A stretch of DNA of 26,113 bases from a virus: positions 1 to 26,113 of IMG/VR virus record IMGVR_UViG_2534681901_000004, one strand, 5' to 3'. A program made the position numbers and the translations under genes. Numbering within the stretch: the stretch's first letter is position 1; the number at the start of each line of letters is the position of its first letter. The notes under the pieces are model-generated. The model saw only the letters and a program-made list of their open reading frames with translations, did not search any database and was not told the DNA's origin. Of the stretch, positions 3,932-26,113 are shown piece by piece.

Positions 3932-4158
3932 CGACCGGCTACGTGGTCGATCTCGACAACGGTCACGACAGCTACTGCGTCGAGAGCCTCGTCGGCGTCA
4001 CCTACTGCGGCGAGACGTTCGACCCGACGGCCGTCGATCGCGAACTCTACGCGATCGATCGCGGCGAGGACCACCCGCATAATTATTTTTGCTTCGACTG
4101 CTCAAAGGCCGACTCGCGAAAGGTCCGTAGTTTGGCCCGGGGTGAGACCGATGCCTGA
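3928..4158 (+). CDS. Small Cys/His protein, probable zinc binder
   Basis: SD-like GGGGGTGA upstream; GHDSYC...TYCG...YFCFDC; overlaps both neighbours. Confidence 0.7.
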   Translation: MTTGYVVDLDNGHDSYCVESLVGVTYCGETFDPTAVDRELYAIDRGEDHPHNYFCFDCSKADSRKVRSLARGETDA

Positions 4159-4384
4159 CCAACAGTCTCGCCCCTTCAAAGATCTCTCGCCGAGCGCCAA
4201 GCTTGTCTACAAGGTGCTTGAGTACGAGGGCAAACTCACTCAACAGGAACTCCGCGAGGAAACACTCCTCTCCCAGCGGACGATCTACAATTCCATCCGT
4301 GACCTTGAAGAGATCAGCGCGATCGATAGTCACCCTTGCCGAGAGGATCTTCGCAAAACGGTCTACTATATGGACAATAGATGA
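4151..4384 (+). CDS. Small winged-helix transcriptional regulator (haloarchaeal MarR/TrmB-like), 77 aa
   Basis: DLSPSAKLVYKVLEYEGKLTQQELREETLLSQRTIYNSIRDLEE matches the common haloarchaeal LPPSAKLV..VL...LTQ..L.EET.L..RTV pattern; GGGTGA SD before ATG 4151. Confidence 0.85.
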   Translation: MPDQQSRPFKDLSPSAKLVYKVLEYEGKLTQQELREETLLSQRTIYNSIRDLEEISAIDSHPCREDLRKTVYYMDNR

Positions 4385-5847: not shown

Positions 5848-6390
5848 ATGTCCACCACAGCCCACACCATCGACGAGGTCCAGGGCCGCGACGAACCCGA
5901 CCGCGTCTTCCGACGCTACGTGTTCAACAACCCCGAGACATGCTCTAACTGCTTCTGTCGCATCAAGAGCGACCACCGACGCATCGCCTCCGGGACGGAA
6001 GGCCGCGACCTCGAGCCGAAGGTCACTCGGGCCGTGTCGGTCCGGGCCCACAAGACCGGTCCGGGCGAGATCGGCCCCGAAGGCCCACTCGAGGGCACTC
6101 GGCAGGTCGACAACACGGCGATCGCGAAGTACCCCGTCCGAACGGTCTGTGAGGACTGCGGGTCGATCGCTGGCCGGGCTGACTCGGATCCGCTGAGCCG
6201 TCGAAAGGCGCTCGCTCGTGCTGAAACACTCGCTGATCGACTCGCGGAGATCGGCGAACCGGTCCAACTGGATCTCCTGAAACACCTCGTGGGATACCTC
6301 AAGTCGCAAGAGGATCTCTCGAGCTACGACACGGAGTGTTTCGAGGCCGCGACCACGATCGCTGTTCGCGAGGCCCGCGATCGACGATGA
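5848..6390 (+). CDS. Hypothetical protein with two CxxC pairs (probable zinc binder), 180 aa
   Basis: CSNC and CEDC; CACCATG start context at 5844-5850; ATGA overlap with the next gene. Confidence 0.8.
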   Translation: MSTTAHTIDEVQGRDEPDRVFRRYVFNNPETCSNCFCRIKSDHRRIASGTEGRDLEPKVTRAVSVRAHKTGPGEIGPEGPLEGTRQVDNTAIAKYPVRTVCEDCGSIAGRADSDPLSRRKALARAETLADRLAEIGEPVQLDLLKHLVGYLKSQEDLSSYDTECFEAATTIAVREARDRR

Positions 6391-6575
6391 CCGTCCACCC
6401 GATCGAACCGGGGCTGCCCGTCGAGGTCCGCTTCGCCGGCCGTCGCCTCGAGGGCGTCGTCGACGAAGTCCGCTGGACGCCGACCTGGAACAACCCGCGC
6501 TCGGAGATCGTCGTCGACGCCGACGGCACGACGATCACGACGGGCCGGGCGAGCATCCAACCACTCACCAACTGA
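6387..6575 (+). CDS. Small beta-rich protein (62 aa), SH3/KOW-like pattern
   Basis: IEPGLPVEVRFAGRRLEGVVDEV resembles a G..V.V.....G.V..V small beta-barrel; ATGA overlap at 6387-6390. Confidence 0.65.
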   Translation: MTVHPIEPGLPVEVRFAGRRLEGVVDEVRWTPTWNNPRSEIVVDADGTTITTGRASIQPLTN

Positions 6576-6582
6576 TCCACCC

Positions 6583-6963
6583 ATGGAACCGAAAGATCCC
6601 GACGCACCGATCGATCCGTATAGCGAGTACGCCCTTTACGACGTCATCAACGGCGACCTCCCCGCCGGCGAGTCCACCGAGTACGAAGGTCTCCACCTTA
6701 TCTCGGGTGGCCCCAGCATCACCGTGCAACCGGACGGCCACGCCGGCTCGGTCGACACGATCGATCCCGGGGACTACGACGACGTCCTCGAGCTGGTCGA
6801 CGACCTGAACCGGCTGGTCCTCGAGTGGCGCGAACTATCGATCAACGGCACCGATGAGGACCTCATCGAGTGGGCCGGACCGTGGGTAACCTCGGACGAG
6901 TCGAAGGCCGACGACGACCACTGGCTCGTCGTTCCGGAGGACGTTCCTGAGGCCGGCGTCTGA
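6583..6963 (+). CDS. Acidic hypothetical protein (126 aa)
   Basis: Genome-typical codon usage and D/E richness; in operon context. Confidence 0.75.
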   Translation: MEPKDPDAPIDPYSEYALYDVINGDLPAGESTEYEGLHLISGGPSITVQPDGHAGSVDTIDPGDYDDVLELVDDLNRLVLEWRELSINGTDEDLIEWAGPWVTSDESKADDDHWLVVPEDVPEAGV

Positions 6964-16720: not shown

Positions 16721-17167
16721 ATGCTTTCTGGCTTCGAAAACGACGAGGCGGTGTTCTTCGTCGAGCGTCAGGTCGGGTCCGAAGAGGGCCCGTACGGCGA
16801 GACCGAGCCAGTCTACGTGTGGATCCCGCTGTCGCTCGAAGACGACCAGTGGGACTACGTCGACGGCGAGGTCGTCTACGACGAGGCCGACGTCGAGGCC
16901 GCCGAGGTACGGTCCGAGCAGCGCAGTGCCGAGTACATTCGCGAGGTCTACTCGGAATGGCCACAGGAGGTCTATCGGCTGTACGTCGATCCAGTGGACG
17001 TCGGCTCGATCACGGGGGGTAACTACGAACTCGAGATCGAGGCTGACGACCGCGTCGACCTCGTAAGCGTCGACGGTCGGTTCGCGACCCAGCCGCCGAA
17101 CGTCCAGCGGCTCGACTCGGCCGTTCCAGAGTACGTCGAACTCGAAGTGACGAGAGTGGAGGTCTGA
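16721..17167 (+). CDS. Head closure/stopper protein (SPP1 gp16-like)
   Basis: Beta-rich, 148 aa; GPYGETEPVY hairpin and IEADDRV; position between adaptor and HK97 gp10-like gene. Confidence 0.6.
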   Translation: MLSGFENDEAVFFVERQVGSEEGPYGETEPVYVWIPLSLEDDQWDYVDGEVVYDEADVEAAEVRSEQRSAEYIREVYSEWPQEVYRLYVDPVDVGSITGGNYELEIEADDRVDLVSVDGRFATQPPNVQRLDSAVPEYVELEVTRVEV

Positions 17168-17556: not shown

Positions 17557-17984
17557 CCTACGGCCTACACGATGCCCTGCGGGACACGATCGTCGACCTG
17601 CGGGATCACGACGAACTCGTCACGCACCTCGAGGATACCAGTGCGATCGACGAGGGTTGGCCGAAGGATCCCCAGGAGTACCCGGTCGTCGTCCGTGTCC
17701 AGCCGGTCACGGAGACATCGAACTCTCAGCGAGAGTTCTCGACGATCCAGCGGCAGTTCCGGGTCCAAGTCGCGGTCGTCGCGAAGGACTCCTGGCGCTC
17801 CGACCAGGACGCCCCGACCTACCGGATAGCCGAGATCATGGCGGCGGTCGCCGACCGACTCGACGTCGCCGTCGACGCGCCGGAGCTGCTGCCCAGCGGC
17901 ACCGACTCGAGCGGCTGGACCGAGGTCACCGGCGACCGCCTCGCGCTCACCCAGGACTGGCTGACGATGACCTACACGCGATAA
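17553..17984 (+). CDS. Tail terminator protein (143 aa)
   Basis: ATGA overlap at 17553-17556; EYPVVV and FRVQVAV pattern; gene order. Confidence 0.7.
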   Translation: MTYGLHDALRDTIVDLRDHDELVTHLEDTSAIDEGWPKDPQEYPVVVRVQPVTETSNSQREFSTIQRQFRVQVAVVAKDSWRSDQDAPTYRIAEIMAAVADRLDVAVDAPELLPSGTDSSGWTEVTGDRLALTQDWLTMTYTR

Positions 17985-19623: not shown

Positions 19624-21975
19624 ATGCCTACGATATCAACACTCACCGCCGTCCTCGAGCTGGACAAGTCCGACTTCGAGTCGAAACTCGACACCGCAAA
19701 ACGGGACCTCGACGGCTTTGGTTCCCGGGCCCAGCAGACGGGCGAGAAGCTGACAGCTGCCGGGAAGTCGATGACGATGGGGATCACGGCTCCCCTCACT
19801 GCGATGGGCGCGCTCTCGGCTCGGACAGCGGCGAACTTCGACCAGGCGATGCAGCGGTCGATCGCCGTGATGGGCGACGTCGACGAGGCGATGCGCGAGG
19901 ACCTCGAGGAAAGAGCGAGGCAGGTCGCAAACACGACGACTCATAGTGCGAGTCAGGCGGCGGAGAGCTACTACTACCTCGCCAGCGCCGGCCTCGATGC
20001 TGCACAGGCGATGGAAGCGATGCCCCAGGTCGCCGCGTTCGCCGAGGCTGGGAACATGCAGATGGCCGAGGCGACCGATGTCGCGACGAACGTCATGTCG
20101 GCGTACAACTACGAGGCCAGTGAGATGTCCGAAGTGACGGACACGCTCACCGCGACGGTCTCGAACCACAACCAGACGATGCAGGACATGAGTACTGCCA
20201 TGTCCCGCGTCGCGCCGATCGCCTCGTCGCTCGGCGTCTCGATCGAAGAGACATCCGCGGCGATCGGGCAGATGGGCGACGTCGGCATCCAAGGCGAGCG
20301 GGCCGGAACGGCGCTTCGAAACGTCTTGTCTCAGCTCTCCGACGAGGCCTCGCCAGTTACCAAGCGGCTCGAGGAAATGGGCGTCCAGACTCGGGACGCG
20401 GAGGGGAACGTCCTCTCGCTGACACAGATCCTCGAGAACATGGAAGAGGCTGGCGTCGAGGCTGGCGACGCGGCGCGGATCTTCGGGACCGAAGCGGGGC
20501 CGGCGATGGCCGCGCTCATGGAGCAGGGGTCGGACGCGCTCGAGCAGAACACGCAACGTCTTCGCGAAGCCGAAGGCGCGACGACCGACATGGCACAGAC
20601 CCAGCGCGACACGCTCAACGCCGAGATGCAGATCGCGCGCTCGAACCTCGAGGACGTCGGAATCGCGATCGGTTCTCAGCTAATTCCGATGCTCACGACG
20701 GCAACTGGATACATCAAGGGCGCTGCTCAGACGTTCCAGGGGCTGAACGACGGCCAGCAGCGGGCGATCATCGTCGCCGGCGGGCTGGCAGCTGCCCTCG
20801 GCCCAATCCTCATGATGGTCGGACTGCTGGCCCAGTCTGTCGTTGCCCTGTCTGGGGCCTATGGCGTCCTATCGGGGGCGTCCTTAGGCCTCTCGGGGAC
20901 ACTGACGGGAACACTTGTCCCGTCGACGATCGCAGCCCAAGGCGGCCTCACCGGGATGGCCGCCAGCGCCCTCGCCGCACAAGTAAGCATCATGGGTTTG
21001 ACAGCCCCTGTCTGGGCCGTCATTGGTGCTATTGGGTTACTGATAGGTGCAGTCGGCGCTTTTGCCGTCGCCTACCAGCGCAACTGGAAGGGCGTTCGCG
21101 ACTACACGGAGTGGGCGATCGACCCGATCACCGACGGTATCGACTGGTTTGTCGAGAAGCTATTCGGGATCAGTTCCGCCTCCGAAAAGGTCGCAGGCGC
21201 ATTCGGTGATTTCATAGATTGGGTAATTGAAAAGATCAATAGCATACCCAAAATCAACCTCGATAGCGGCGACCTCGGCGATTTCGACACATCGTCTGCG
21301 AAGCCTGGCGATAAGAGTGCCAGCGATGTCATGGGCTCCGAAGACTTCGAGCAGCAGGGCCAACAGGCGGGGCAGGACTTCGGGTCCGGCTTCCAGGAGG
21401 GCCTCGTCGAGGGCCTCGAAACGGAGCAGGTCGATCAGGTCCTCAGCGAGGACCTCGAGGAGATCACCACCGAGATCGAGGACCTCCGATCCGGGATGAC
21501 CACCCAGTCCGAGTGGGAACGGGTCGAGGAACTCGAACAGCAGGCCGAGCAGCTCCGGCAGCAGCGCCAGCAACTCGAGGAGACGGGCGACGTCACTACC
21601 GTCGACCAGGAGTACGTCGCCGAAGCCGCCCGCCGCGACCTCCAGGAAGAGCAGGAGCGTGCGGAGTACATGGAGGACGTCTACAGTCGGCTCGACGAGG
21701 AGGAGCTGGACGCGAACGTCGACACGAATCGCGAGGTCTCGCTCTCCGACGAGGACATCCAGTCGCTGGATGCCGAGACCATCCAGTCGATGACCGAGCA
21801 GGAGGGCGACGATCCGACGAAGAAGATCCTCGAGGAACTGAAACAGCTCCGCAGCGATCTCAACTCGCTCCGGCTGCGCGTCGACCTGGAACACAACTGC
21901 CGTGAGTTCGAGAAGATCATGGAAGACACCGCGGAGGGGGTCTTCGAAGAAGAGATCAACAGCACCGGACCATAG
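19624..21975 (+). CDS. Tail tape measure protein (TP901-type core)
   Basis: MTMGITAPL, SASQAAESYYYLASAG, GIQGERAGTALRN and ARIFGTEA motifs; hydrophobic middle; acidic coiled-coil C-terminus. Confidence 0.95.
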   Translation: MPTISTLTAVLELDKSDFESKLDTAKRDLDGFGSRAQQTGEKLTAAGKSMTMGITAPLTAMGALSARTAANFDQAMQRSIAVMGDVDEAMREDLEERARQVANTTTHSASQAAESYYYLASAGLDAAQAMEAMPQVAAFAEAGNMQMAEATDVATNVMSAYNYEASEMSEVTDTLTATVSNHNQTMQDMSTAMSRVAPIASSLGVSIEETSAAIGQMGDVGIQGERAGTALRNVLSQLSDEASPVTKRLEEMGVQTRDAEGNVLSLTQILENMEEAGVEAGDAARIFGTEAGPAMAALMEQGSDALEQNTQRLREAEGATTDMAQTQRDTLNAEMQIARSNLEDVGIAIGSQLIPMLTTATGYIKGAAQTFQGLNDGQQRAIIVAGGLAAALGPILMMVGLLAQSVVALSGAYGVLSGASLGLSGTLTGTLVPSTIAAQGGLTGMAASALAAQVSIMGLTAPVWAVIGAIGLLIGAVGAFAVAYQRNWKGVRDYTEWAIDPITDGIDWFVEKLFGISSASEKVAGAFGDFIDWVIEKINSIPKINLDSGDLGDFDTSSAKPGDKSASDVMGSEDFEQQGQQAGQDFGSGFQEGLVEGLETEQVDQVLSEDLEEITTEIEDLRSGMTTQSEWERVEELEQQAEQLRQQRQQLEETGDVTTVDQEYVAEAARRDLQEEQERAEYMEDVYSRLDEEELDANVDTNREVSLSDEDIQSLDAETIQSMTEQEGDDPTKKILEELKQLRSDLNSLRLRVDLEHNCREFEKIMEDTAEGVFEEEINSTGP

Positions 21976-21977
21976 CG

Positions 21978-23108
21978 ATGCAACTGCACACACTCGAGTT
22001 CTCCAGCGATCAGGTCGGACAGATCAGCGTCGGGGCCAGCCCCGACACCACCGAACAGACACCGCTCGACGATCGCGGCTCAGCAGAGATGCTCGCAGGG
22101 CCGACCCCGTCGATCTCGTTCGACGTCGCCGTCGACGGACCAGACGGACGGCGCCGTGGCGCCGAACTCGAGCACCTTCTCTCCCAGCCGATGTTCGCCC
22201 CAGTCGCGGTCTCGATCCCATCCCAGCCCGACCTCGAGGGGTACTATGTGGGATCGAGCGTCGATCGCGACGTCGTCCTCTCGCAGGAGGGTGGCGACGA
22301 TCACCACGTCGTGCCGTTGACGCTCTCGCGGGCTGGGACGTCTGGATCGCACTACCGCGCTCTCGAGACGCGACCCGTCGACGACGAGATCGATCACCCA
22401 TATGGCAACGACACGACGCTCCTGGTTGGCCTCCCGGCAGTCGCCAAGCAGGTCCAGTGGTTTGATCCCGAGGGCGAAACGCGCCAGCTCGCGTCACCAA
22501 TCGAGACCCGCAGCGCCGAGGGCGGCGACGTCGAGATCTACGACCTCGCCGACGGCGAAGCTGCGGTTGGGACCGGGTCGCCGGCGCTCGTCTACGCGAT
22601 CGCTCTCGAGGCCGAGGGTGACGTCGACGTCGGTGTTTTCGATACGCAGGGGTCGGGAGACAGGGCCGACTGGGCCCAGATCTTCTCGCCGAAGACCGGC
22701 CTCACCGGCAGCGAGGTCGTGATGTGCAACGGCCTCATCCGGCTGCGCCTCGACGAGCCCAACAGTACCCTCGAGGCCCAGCGCTGGGACGCGACCAACA
22801 CGACTTGGACGACGGTCGGCCTCGAGGCAGACCAACCCTCGACCGTCGAGCTATTCGACGTCGATCTCGAGACGGTCGCGATGGCTCGCGATCGCGCCCA
22901 GTTGACCTTCACCGTCGACGGCTCGCTGTTCGCGCTCGACGCGATCCTCGCTCGCGGCGACAAGGACGTCCTCTTTACCATCCCCCCGAACGAGAGCGGC
23001 CCGATCCCGGCCGACCTCGAGAACTGGCTCTCGCCGGTCGCGAGCTCGAGCGTTGTCGATCCAAACGCCTCGAAGGACCTGGTCGCTCGCTCGGAGGTGC
23101 GTCGATAG
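21978..23108 (+). CDS. Putative distal tail / baseplate-proximal protein
   Basis: 376 aa, beta-rich, immediately after the tape measure; assignment by position only. Confidence 0.55.
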   Translation: MQLHTLEFSSDQVGQISVGASPDTTEQTPLDDRGSAEMLAGPTPSISFDVAVDGPDGRRRGAELEHLLSQPMFAPVAVSIPSQPDLEGYYVGSSVDRDVVLSQEGGDDHHVVPLTLSRAGTSGSHYRALETRPVDDEIDHPYGNDTTLLVGLPAVAKQVQWFDPEGETRQLASPIETRSAEGGDVEIYDLADGEAAVGTGSPALVYAIALEAEGDVDVGVFDTQGSGDRADWAQIFSPKTGLTGSEVVMCNGLIRLRLDEPNSTLEAQRWDATNTTWTTVGLEADQPSTVELFDVDLETVAMARDRAQLTFTVDGSLFALDAILARGDKDVLFTIPPNESGPIPADLENWLSPVASSSVVDPNASKDLVARSEVRR

Positions 23109-25589
23109 ATGCCGATCGTCCACGACTTCGAGACCATTGATACCACGCAATGGAACGGGAATACTGGCGATCTCTCCCGAAACAACGATAGCTGGGCTGT
23201 CACCAACGGGAGCTATGCAGCGAAATATGCCGCGCCGTCGGGGACAACGAAGGTGTGGACGACGACGGAAAACGAGTATGACATCTCCCGCGGCGATCTC
23301 TTCTGGGTCGATATCTACTATCGGGTCGATCAGTACGATATCTATTTTGCCGTGCAGGACGCGAACAACTGGATTCGTGGTGAGTTCGACCAAGGCGGTG
23401 ATGCGATGCGGCTCAAACAGTGCATCGACGGCACTGTCGAAACGCTGGGGGACAGTAGCGTCTCGATCTACGAAACAGGCACCGTCAACCTTCGATTCGA
23501 TTGGCAGTCTGACGGCAAAATTCATTTTGAATACTTTGTCGATGGGAGCAACGAGGGCGGAGTGATCGGTACTGAAAGCATCCCGTGGGATGGAGGCGGC
23601 ATCGGGATCGGAGCCCAAACGAGCAGTTCCCAGGACCAATGGGCGGACTTCTGGCGGATCGAGAACACCATCGACTCTCCGTCCAATCTCTCCGCCGCCG
23701 ACGATCCGATGAATGCTGTGGTCAACCTCTCGTGGACCGATAATTCGGAGTACGAGAGTGAGTTCCGTATCTACCGGGCGACGAGTTCTGGATCGTCAAA
23801 AAGCGACTACACGCAGATCGCGACTGTCGGGGAGAACACGACGAGTTACACCGATACATCGGTCGATGCGGGGACGACCTACTACTACCGGGTTTCGGCC
23901 TACGAGTCCTACGACGGCGAGAGCGCGCTGTCGAACGAGGCTTCAGCGAGTGCCACGCCCGGGCCACCATCGAGCATCTCGGCGACCGTCGACGCCGACG
24001 ATCAGATCACGGTGTCGTTCGATGATGGTGGGGGTGCAGGCAGCTACGAGGTCGAGATGGACCGGAATGGGACAGGGTTCGTGTCTCCGGCTGGGGGTCC
24101 ATCGAGTATTACCGACGACGGTTCGAGCAGCTACTCGGCGACCTATGGACCGGAAAATTCTGGCGGATCGCCGAAAGACTACGGCGCGTCGGTCGGGCTC
24201 GACTCGAGCTTCCAGTTCCGTGTACGGTCGGTTTCGAACGGAGTTACGTCTGACTGGGCCTCGAGCGGGACGGTCTACACGTCGCCGATCCCGCCGTACA
24301 ACCCGAGCGTCTCGAGGCCCAGTGCAACCGAGATCACTTTCGAGTTCGAAAATCGATCGGACATCGTTGATTCTGTTGAGGTCGAATTCCGGGAAGACGA
24401 AGGCTCCGGGTATGGCACATGGAATCAATCGTCTGCTACTCCCGCTACACCCGGAACTACAATCGATGCTCCGGAAGACGCTCGTTTTCAGTTCCGTCTT
24501 CGATCTGTTGGGCCGGACGACAAAACATCCGAGTGGGTCTACGCCGACTACGGCAACGGGGGCAACGTCTACTTCGAGGACGACTTCTCGAGTGGCGACG
24601 CCTCGGCGTGGGATAGCAACTCGATCGGTACAGGCGGCGTCACTAGCACGTTAGCCTCGACGTTCTCGGCGGGGGACAATACACAGAGTCCCGAAACCGG
24701 GGGGTACGCGGTCGAAATGGGAGATACCGGGTGGCTTGTCAAAAACCTCGGTGATCTCTCCGGCGAGTCGGATGTCCACGTCCGGCTGAGGGTTCAGGCA
24801 GCCAGCAACGACGGCGCCTACGAACGCGGTGATCTGTGGTGGTATGACGGCTCTTCGTGGCAGACCCTCGAGCAGTGGGGGTGGCAGCACGACGGGCAGG
24901 GTTGGATGGAGTACCATGCCCTCGTCCCTGACAGTTACCTTTCGACTGACAACCGTGTCCAGATCGGGCGCGATGAGGGCGCCGGTGTCGACTACATCGC
25001 GTTCGACGAGATCGTCGTCAGCGACATCCTGCACGAGTACACTAAACCGGCAGCACCATACGGACTCACACTTGATGCCAGCGTCGAGGGTGAGATTACT
25101 GCCTCGTGGACATCCGACGCTGCTTTCTTGGACAACCAAGACTTCCTGTGGAAAAGGAGCGATGGGTCCTATAACGTTGAATACGGGATTGGTACCGGGG
25201 AATCATATACACTCTCTTCGTTGGATGACGGTGAGCAATACACGATCTACGTAAAATCCGTTGTGAGAGAGGTGCGCAACGGGGAGATGAAATACAATTG
25301 GTGGAGAACAGCAAGCAACGAAGAGAGCGCGGTAACGTTCCTCCCGGCCCCGACGAACCTCACCGTCGACGCGACCTCCGCGACCTCGGTCGACCTCTCG
25401 TGGACAGACAACCATGACTACGGCGACACGCAGGTCCAGTACAAGCCGTCCGACGCCTCGACGTGGACGACGTTTGCGACCGTCTCGCGGGGGACGGGGG
25501 CGGAGTCGATTACGGGACTCTTGAACGGCGAACAGTACGACGCCCGCGTCGTTGCGACCACTGAACACACCACTACGGAGGACGCATAA
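23109..25589 (+). CDS. FN3-repeat tail adhesin (about five FN3 domains plus two lectin/CBM-like beta-sandwich modules)
   Basis: FN3 signatures SPSNLSA..VNLSWTDNS..FRIYR..YYYRVSAY and LPAPTNLTV..VDLSWTDN; jelly-roll-like modules opening HDFE and FEDDFSSG and closing ADFWRIE and AFDEIVV. Confidence 0.85.
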   Translation: MPIVHDFETIDTTQWNGNTGDLSRNNDSWAVTNGSYAAKYAAPSGTTKVWTTTENEYDISRGDLFWVDIYYRVDQYDIYFAVQDANNWIRGEFDQGGDAMRLKQCIDGTVETLGDSSVSIYETGTVNLRFDWQSDGKIHFEYFVDGSNEGGVIGTESIPWDGGGIGIGAQTSSSQDQWADFWRIENTIDSPSNLSAADDPMNAVVNLSWTDNSEYESEFRIYRATSSGSSKSDYTQIATVGENTTSYTDTSVDAGTTYYYRVSAYESYDGESALSNEASASATPGPPSSISATVDADDQITVSFDDGGGAGSYEVEMDRNGTGFVSPAGGPSSITDDGSSSYSATYGPENSGGSPKDYGASVGLDSSFQFRVRSVSNGVTSDWASSGTVYTSPIPPYNPSVSRPSATEITFEFENRSDIVDSVEVEFREDEGSGYGTWNQSSATPATPGTTIDAPEDARFQFRLRSVGPDDKTSEWVYADYGNGGNVYFEDDFSSGDASAWDSNSIGTGGVTSTLASTFSAGDNTQSPETGGYAVEMGDTGWLVKNLGDLSGESDVHVRLRVQAASNDGAYERGDLWWYDGSSWQTLEQWGWQHDGQGWMEYHALVPDSYLSTDNRVQIGRDEGAGVDYIAFDEIVVSDILHEYTKPAAPYGLTLDASVEGEITASWTSDAAFLDNQDFLWKRSDGSYNVEYGIGTGESYTLSSLDDGEQYTIYVKSVVREVRNGEMKYNWWRTASNEESAVTFLPAPTNLTVDATSATSVDLSWTDNHDYGDTQVQYKPSDASTWTTFATVSRGTGAESITGLLNGEQYDARVVATTEHTTTEDA

Positions 25590-25591
25590 CG

Positions 25592-26076
25592 ATGCCTGTC
25601 ACGTTCACTACCGACCTGCCGGACGCGGAGGGACTCGACCTCGATGGCAGCGAGCCTGACGAGATCACTGCCCAGTGGACGCAAGTACTGAACAACGGCG
25701 AGTACCGCCTCGAGGTTCGCGAGAGCGACGCGAACGAGGCCTGGGGCGACTCCGGAACGGCGACGGTCGCCTACGACGCAACGCTCGAGCACACGTTCAC
25801 GGGGATCCTCGACGGTGAGAAGTTCGACGTCCGAATCCGAACCCAGACCGCCCACGTCACCGGCAGCTGGCTCACCGGCGAGGAGATCACGAACCTGCCG
25901 GCGCCGGACGGCCTCACGATCTCCAACGTCGGGGCGACGTCGCTGGACCTCTCGTGGATCGACAACGCAAACTTCCAGGGGAGCTACCAGATCCTCCGGA
26001 AGCGCACCGACTACGACTACGACGGCGGAGACGGCCGACTCGTGGGGACGGTCAGCGACACGGCCGAGAGCTATAC
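25592..26076 (+). CDS. Second FN3-repeat tail protein, 3'-truncated by the contig end
   Basis: Hand translation MPVTFTTDLPDAEGLDLDGSEPDEITAQWTQ...LPAPDGLTISNVGATSLDLSWIDNANFQGSYQILRK...; SD GGAGG at 25577-25581; no stop before the adapter, so it is missing from the ORF track. Confidence 0.9.
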
Positions 26077-26113
26077 CTGTCTCTTATACACATCTCTGAT
26101 GGCGCGAGGGAGG
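26077..26113 (+). other. Untrimmed Nextera (Tn5 mosaic end) sequencing adapter
   Basis: CTGTCTCTTATACACATCT at 26077-26095 followed by CTGATGGCGCGAGGGAGG, the reverse complement of the early Nextera transposome oligo GCCTCCCTCGCGCCATCAGAGATGTGTATAAGAGACAG. Confidence 0.98.

Follow-up and report, generated by a model that had tools for sequence, protein, structure and literature searches.

Can a single protein domain be divided between two genes and be put together again by their products? The question is raised by a locus at the end of the IMG/VR virus record IMGVR_UViG_2534681901_000004, of which positions 1 to 26,113 (the window; one strand, 5' to 3') were analysed. The window makes up the final 26 kb of contig C50 in the draft genome of a haloarchaeon, where a Graaviviridae-like provirus carries the locus in its tail-tip module. 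Two consecutive genes, on the plus strand like all other genes and sequence elements placed below, meet there within what would otherwise be one fibronectin type III (FN3) domain: gene 1 (23109..25589) encodes an 826-amino-acid arm protein whose last FN3 stops short of its final β-strand, and gene 2, which starts at 25592, encodes a baseplate hub. A reading of the window made from its letters (the sequence-only reading) had proposed that the N-terminus of gene 2 is the missing strand and that it complements the truncated domain by analogy to pilus strand exchange. We conclude, with a probability of about 0.75, that the locus represents a genuine, evolutionarily maintained gene fission within an FN3 domain, combined with strand complementation that would join the arm to the hub.

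The C-terminus of gene 1 reads ...YDARVVATTEHTTTEDA and is followed by a TAA stop codon at 25587-25589; two bases further on, the ATG at 25592 opens gene 2, whose N-terminus is MPVTFTTDLPDA. Across this TAA-CG-ATG junction (25587..25594) the reading frame moves by -1 from gene 1 to gene 2, and a Shine-Dalgarno-like GGAGG (25577..25581) lies within the final codons of gene 1, 10 nucleotides upstream of the ATG. The end of gene 1, the junction's own Shine-Dalgarno element, the spacing of stop and start and the beginning of gene 2, on which the sequence-only reading had relied, are each present in the sequence, and so are the intact internal junctions, AHVTGSWLTGEEITNLPAP and ESAVTFLPAP, with which it had compared the joined segment. 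The string TAACGATG, said to be shared by two junctions, occurs at 17982 and 25587 only, and the format of a stop, two nucleotides and an ATG is found elsewhere at 17167/17170 and 21975/21978. The junction is also identical in the Logan assembly of ERR481217, which may share reads with the window's assembly; a 907-residue protein from that assembly (P0006) equals the gene 2 product at 100% identity.

The terminal domain of gene 1 belongs to PF00041 (fn3): its score, 55.1 bits, exceeds the gathering threshold of 25 (E = 8.9e-15; best stretch, residues 747-821). The match spans positions 2-73 of the 84 in the profile and the protein ends five residues beyond it; because the match stops at 73/84, strand G is missing from gene 1. 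Neither the Pfam fn3 profile nor a profile of uncut homologues recovered a complete seven-strand A-G sandwich within this last domain. On the other side of the junction, the first Pfam fn3 match of gene 2 begins only at residue 15, and residues 1-12 thus lie in no domain of their own. The truncated FN3, which comprises strands A-F and an acidic FG tail ending in ...TEHTTTEDA (25341..25586, delimited with Pfam fn3 and the profile of fused homologues), is hereafter called the proposed socket, and the orphan strand G (MPVTFTT) with the inter-domain linker DLPDA (25592..25627, assigned by alignment to strand G of the fused homologues) the proposed plug. The first complete FN3 of gene 2 follows at 25628..25891 (Pfam fn3 residues 15-91; model strands E13-E100).

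The identification of the plug as strand G draws on natural homologues in which both halves belong to one chain. A profile hidden Markov model was built from 15 such fused sequences and compared with 12 split pairs, which partition it without overlap: the gene 1 ends, 12 of 12, occupy positions 6 to 88-91, whereas the gene 2 starts, likewise 12 of 12, begin at 92-95 and continue to about 190, strand G itself starting at 93. The terminal FN3 of gene 1 in the window matches positions 6-88. In an AlphaFold2 model of a fused form, with a mean predicted local distance difference test score (pLDDT) of 93.9, strand F comprises residues 76-84 and the adjacent strand G residues 95-98 (pLDDT ~97); the latter is the equivalent of gene 2 residues 3-6, and the FG turn, between model residues 92 and 93, is where the split forms are interrupted. 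A monomer model of the whole gene 2 product (pLDDT 81) leaves residues 1-6 without structure (pLDDT below 50) and places the start of the protein's own FN3 at residue 13. The beginning of the gene 2 protein is collinear with the uncut homologues and homologous to FN3 strand G and linker, as had been proposed. Both parts that a donor-strand arrangement would need are present: a candidate acceptor, an immunoglobulin (Ig)-like domain without its last strand, and a candidate donor, gene 2 residues 1-11, which extend the end of a second protein and are homologous to the strand the acceptor lacks.

The cut is not peculiar to the window. In a sample of 401 Halobacteria genomes, the N-terminal region of gene 2 was found in 38; searches of IMG/VR with either half gave three loci only, genome and protein searches being far more productive. 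The sequence-only reading had named the state of the homologues, split at the same point or fused, as a check on its proposal, and both types were found, 17 of the inspected loci being split and 16 fused. A gene ending in a truncated FN3 lies directly upstream of the hub gene in 13 of the 17 split loci; in a fourteenth, L038 (G139:C7), a gene for a 256-amino-acid HNH endonuclease sits exactly at the cut, with neither half lost. The Halorubrum viruses CGphi46 and BJ1 share the cut, as do the induced provirus Humcor1 and an IMG/VR contig; in CGphi46 the junction reads ...TEHTQTEDN, a stop, an overlapping ATG and then MPQQFTTDLPDE. At the protein level, 30 of 35 database proteins similar to the last 187 residues of gene 1 end at this point with ...TEHxxTEDx, and homologues of its C-terminal part are 465-1013 amino acids long with unrelated N-termini. 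Correspondingly, 16 of 18 gene 2 homologues start with M-P-x-x-F-T-T or a near variant. The split, occurring at the same place in many diverged loci and collinear with uncut homologues, is real, as the sequence-only reading had held.

The fused state is represented by HJTV-4 ORF42 (1189 amino acids), which reads ...TDHATARTGTTTFTTDLPGA... across the site and whose downstream part shares 87.5% identity with gene 2, and by 15 further loci. Two proteins of about 1320-1330 amino acids, P0055 and P0056, are single chains from head to hub, with a glycine-rich head of the gene 1 type and the hub C-terminus. In such homologues identical domains stand in identical order and the plug segment is the covalent strand G, but there is no stop, ATG or GGAGG at the site and the strand sequence is far less conserved. 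Two observations on individual fused loci may be recorded here. In the HJTV-4-like provirus L005 (IMGVR_UViG_2914868299_000004), the fused hub gene shifts frame at about 4138-4309, in the FN3 after the junction and not at the conserved cut; either the gene is broken there or a frameshift error is to blame. G271:C1 contains three fused-type hub loci, at 546218, 606960 and 2653993, two of which score identically, which suggests duplicated or multiple related proviruses.

Detachment of the strand goes together with a marked difference in its conservation. In split forms, plug residues 2-11 have a mean pairwise identity of 0.71 versus 0.47 for the next FN3, and in fused forms the equivalent segments have 0.37 versus 0.38; the loci are related and not independent, and these contrasts are descriptive, not statistical tests. 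Within the plug, M1, T7, L9, P10 and D11 are invariant across the 12 split loci, position F5, in the core, is mostly aromatic, and the codons differ synonymously between loci. The ratio of nonsynonymous to synonymous substitution rates (dN/dS) of the socket ranges from 0.15 to 0.60 between relatives, with dS near saturation for several pairs, and points to purifying selection on the truncated domain.

The two proteins are of very different character. Gene 2 is the conserved baseplate hub, a homologue of gp44 of Haloferax tailed virus 1 (HFTV1): it matches phrog_18315 over its full length (E = 5e-168), its family profile hits some 300 residues in the body of the HFTV1 hub (PDB 9h4p chain BD, E = 2.4e-48), and the same chain is the top Foldseek match (E = 4.7e-15). 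The window holds the 5' part of the gene (25592..26076, cut by the contig end) out of a full product of 907 amino acids, in which the linker is followed by two complete FN3 domains. The gene 1 protein, in contrast, is the variable, exchangeable part, its homologues elsewhere carrying glycine-rich or other heads. Judging from its translation, Pfam fn3 matches and homologues of its C-terminal part, it consists of a jelly-roll head, FN3-type repeats, a second β-rich domain and the terminal FN3 that lacks strand G. The head (amino acids 1-189, 23109..23675) was assigned to the LamG or concanavalin-like jelly-rolls by comparison of the ESM Atlas model of this protein, of which residues 1-190 align to 3-keto-disaccharide-hydrolase and LamG-like clusters with a template modelling (TM) score of 0.74-0.77. 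Pfam returned no family for residues 1-194 or 481-660 at E-values up to 1, and with Pfam silent on the head the jelly-roll call is a lead from predicted structure only; on this model the head probably binds glycans. The second β-rich domain, at about amino acids 486-650 (24564-25058) between FN3 repeats, is conserved with CGphi46 and other homologues and looks by eye like a second jelly-roll. The sequence-only reading had envisaged an exchangeable receptor-binding tip, encoded downstream, on a conserved FN3 stalk, encoded upstream. One partner is indeed exchangeable, but since gene 2 is the conserved hub and the heads of gene 1 vary, that assignment has to be reversed.

Taken together, the data suggest how such a joint might work. 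Gene 1 and gene 2 would be made as separate polypeptides by coupled translation: the stop of one abuts or overlaps the start of the other, and gene 1 carries the Shine-Dalgarno element in its last codons. The N-terminal strand of the hub would then insert beside strand F of the last FN3 of gene 1, completing the sandwich, and the completed sandwich would tie the arm to the hub, the arm being suspended by way of two further FN3 domains. A trimeric hub, as in HFTV1, would give each virion three arms. Because plug and socket would be generic, the cut could double as a boundary between modules where recombination exchanges one head for another.

Separate translation is not the only way to read a stop codon in the middle of a domain. 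Ribosomes might instead unite the two frames, shifting by -1 here and reading through the stop in loci where the frames agree, so that the product would be a single fused protein like HJTV-4 ORF42. The -1 relation seen in the window recurs in several other loci, an in-frame ATG directly follows the stop in four more (L006, L018, L027 and L028), and the natural fused forms demonstrate that a continuous chain functions. The frame relation nevertheless varies between loci (0, +1, +2), gene 2 being in the -1 frame in the window and several loci and in the 0 or +1 frame elsewhere, and no slippery heptamer of the form X XXY YYZ is present in the 25-nucleotide overlap zone at 25565-25589. Programmed recoding would be marked by a conserved frame relation and by a junction with a slippery or readthrough signal, and this combination was not found. 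What is conserved is the apparatus of an independent start: the ATG with an upstream GGAGG is confined to the split loci, the GGAGG lying within 24 nucleotides of the start in 11 of 17 of them, and in BJ1 and Humcor1, against 0 of 16 fused loci. In L038 the HNH gene, about 770 nucleotides, separates the halves, and fusion is therefore ruled out there. We regard joining by recoding as very improbable, and a conserved -1 frameshift, considered by itself, was rejected because the frames vary and there is no slippery site. An intein or trans-splicing was likewise considered and rejected, the halves abutting within at most four profile positions with no extra sequence at the cut. The HNH gene of L038 (reverse-complement coordinates 6153-6923, with a hub gene that starts with GTG) resembles a homing-type insertion, placed at the boundary between modules. 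Another objection, that the stop arose in sequencing or assembly, or through a recent mutation that disabled the gene in a decaying provirus, might be encouraged by the nature of the window, a draft contig ending in adapter; yet a second assembly shows no difference at the junction, the same cut exists in isolated CGphi46 and BJ1, in induced Humcor1 and in dozens of database proteins, and purifying selection is apparent on either side of it, so that this explanation is effectively refuted by conservation.

A more serious alternative accepts the fission and denies the complementation. The proteins would then associate, if at all, via other surfaces, the six-stranded FN3 would be stable or floppy by itself, and the start of the hub would be a conserved leader, left over from a fused ancestor or kept for translation initiation. 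Several points weigh against strand complementation and lend this alternative some substance. Three of the 17 split-type hubs (L039, L040 and L041) have no gene for a truncated FN3 directly upstream. Two of them, L039 (G259:C5) and L041 (G252:C19), have an extra gene of 172 or 381 amino acids before the hub, and in the glycine-rich FN3 protein of these loci the fn3 match stops at profile position 69-72 and is followed by a C-terminal extension of about 50 amino acids; their hubs keep the usual MP..TT.LPD start, and the plug may accordingly have other partners or not always need one. The third, L040, adjoins non-viral genes and may be a remnant. Moreover, conservation of the gene 1 tail (..TED.), whose E-D codons encode the GGAGG, and of the M-P start of gene 2 may in part reflect translation signals and not protein contacts, and the relatedness of the loci and the near saturation of dS bear on the comparisons given above. 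Against this alternative, however, the strand is more conserved detached than covalently attached (0.71 vs 0.37), in residues that include F5 and T7, the socket is maintained by purifying selection, 12 of 12 pairs are cut at the same position of the profile, and diverse heads keep an identical truncated end. We therefore consider fission without complementation unlikely, and favour a maintained fission in which the strand of the hub completes the socket.

Is the joint, then, specific to each pair or common to many? On a tree of the hub region, from which the plug was left out and which within-gene recombination and mosaicism make a rough guide, the split and fused states change at least eight times and cluster no more than shuffled labels do. 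A single ancient fission, inherited vertically, was rejected because of this scatter. The socket of the window is 47-70% identical to the class A sockets (47-53%, with hubs at 34-36%, for those from Halorubrum-type loci), several of which adjoin Halorubrum-type hubs that are 34-46% identical to the window's hub, whereas hubs 52-79% identical to the window's adjoin class B sockets whose identity to its socket is no more than 15-33%. This discordance fits recombination at the cut. It is tempting, if still rather doubtful, to go further and see in the ...TEHTTTEDx end and the MPVTFTTDLPD start a generic plug-and-socket standard across Graaviviridae-like haloarchaeal viruses, by which any socket arm could mount on any plug hub. 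Such a standard would span two socket classes with only 15-33% identity; host range would evolve via whole-gene swaps at the cut, arms from a co-resident provirus could mount in trans, and the joint, working in multimolar salt, would parallel engineered split-domain tags in a natural and non-covalent form.

The surroundings of the two genes conform to the order of a late tailed-virus operon, in which the tape measure gene is followed by a gene for a 376-amino-acid protein, gene 1 and gene 2. The tape measure protein gene (19624..21975; PF10145, PhageMin_Tail, E = 2.4e-45) opens the tail-tip module. The 376-amino-acid tail gene (21978..23108) matches phrog_18406 over its full length (E = 1.5e-73) and has equivalents at the matching position in HJTV-4 (ORF40) and CGphi46; its place in the gene order suggests that it may correspond to a distal-tail protein or baseplate-tail connector. 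The gene layout around the hub is common to the window, HJTV-4, CGphi46 and BJ1. Beyond 26076 the window is non-biological, positions 26077..26113 being a Nextera transposase adapter (no strand assigned) with an exact match to CTGTCTCTTATACACATCT at 26077-26095, and the final 12 codons of the window's open frame are an artefact of this adapter. Because the contig terminates in it, gene 2 is cut by the assembly, and its remainder is found on contig C51:26-1999 of the same assembly.

These results bear on genes that have so far been opaque. Hub and arm genes are annotated as hypothetical in all isolated relatives, and the Humcor1 paper reported no detectable baseplate or tail-fibre genes (PMC7911831). 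A testable function can now be attached to them, that of a hub with a detachable lectin arm. If the joint is generic, it would explain the shuffling of host-recognition modules in archaeal tailed viruses, and it is a possible source of a salt-tolerant protein-docking pair. A literature search on donor strands, phage tails and fibronectin type III returned nothing relevant, and no paper on this split in haloarchaeal viruses was found; comparison has to be made with systems that resemble the proposed joint in one respect or another.

The analogy on which the sequence-only reading drew is that of the chaperone-usher pili (Pap/Fim), in which an Ig-like fold without its C-terminal G strand receives that strand from the N-terminal extension of the next subunit, after a dedicated chaperone has donated a strand transiently, and assembly proceeds through an usher. 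The logic of the missing G strand is the same, and the comparison is one of mechanism, with no claim of family membership. The analogy holds for the principle but not for the machinery or the chain of exchanges: here there would be one joint between two different virion proteins instead of a polymer of repeated exchanges, assembly would presumably be cytoplasmic, and the proposed joint involves no periplasmic chaperone or usher, the neighbourhood consisting of tail genes, although chaperone and usher genes were not specifically searched for.

Among viruses, a relative of known structure is HFTV1, whose hub gp44 (PDB 9h4p/9h5b/9h7v) is the homologue of gene 2 by profile and Foldseek. Its hub is a trimer, tail fibres attach at the N-terminus of each hub subunit, and the fibre, gp42, is a separate trimeric β-helix protein held by hydrogen bonds and Mg2+ (PMC12494034). 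The site of fibre attachment speaks for the joint proposed here. That attachment is described without a split FN3, and only the body of the hub aligns, the N-terminal FN3 arm and plug of gene 2 being unmatched to the HFTV1 chain. In the Pseudomonas podophage A1002, fibre dimers are fixed to the nozzle-rope protein by augmented β-sheets (PMC13730344). As proposed here, tail appendages are thus held on the extended N-terminal region of a tail protein by β-sheet augmentation, but the folds of A1002 are complete and are augmented along a rope-like segment, and no domain is cut by gene fission.

The closest solved analogue of the principle is the tripod of the Lactococcus phage Tuc2009, in which the C-terminal β-hairpin of BppU completes the β-sheet of domain 2 of BppA to form a composite titin-like Ig domain (PMC4742702). 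There, as would be the case here, the β-sandwich of an accessory carbohydrate-binding baseplate protein is completed by strands from a neighbouring baseplate protein. The Tuc2009 joint is made of other proteins, serves a virus of another host domain and shows no homology as far as tested; its donor is a two-strand C-terminal hairpin, whereas here it would be a single N-terminal strand. Given this precedent for β-sandwich completion between tail proteins, the principle is not new. We know of no series of fused and split homologues described for Tuc2009; the haloarchaeal loci provide matched split and fused forms of one joint, and with them a natural experiment on attachment by a single strand and on why fission has so often been favoured.

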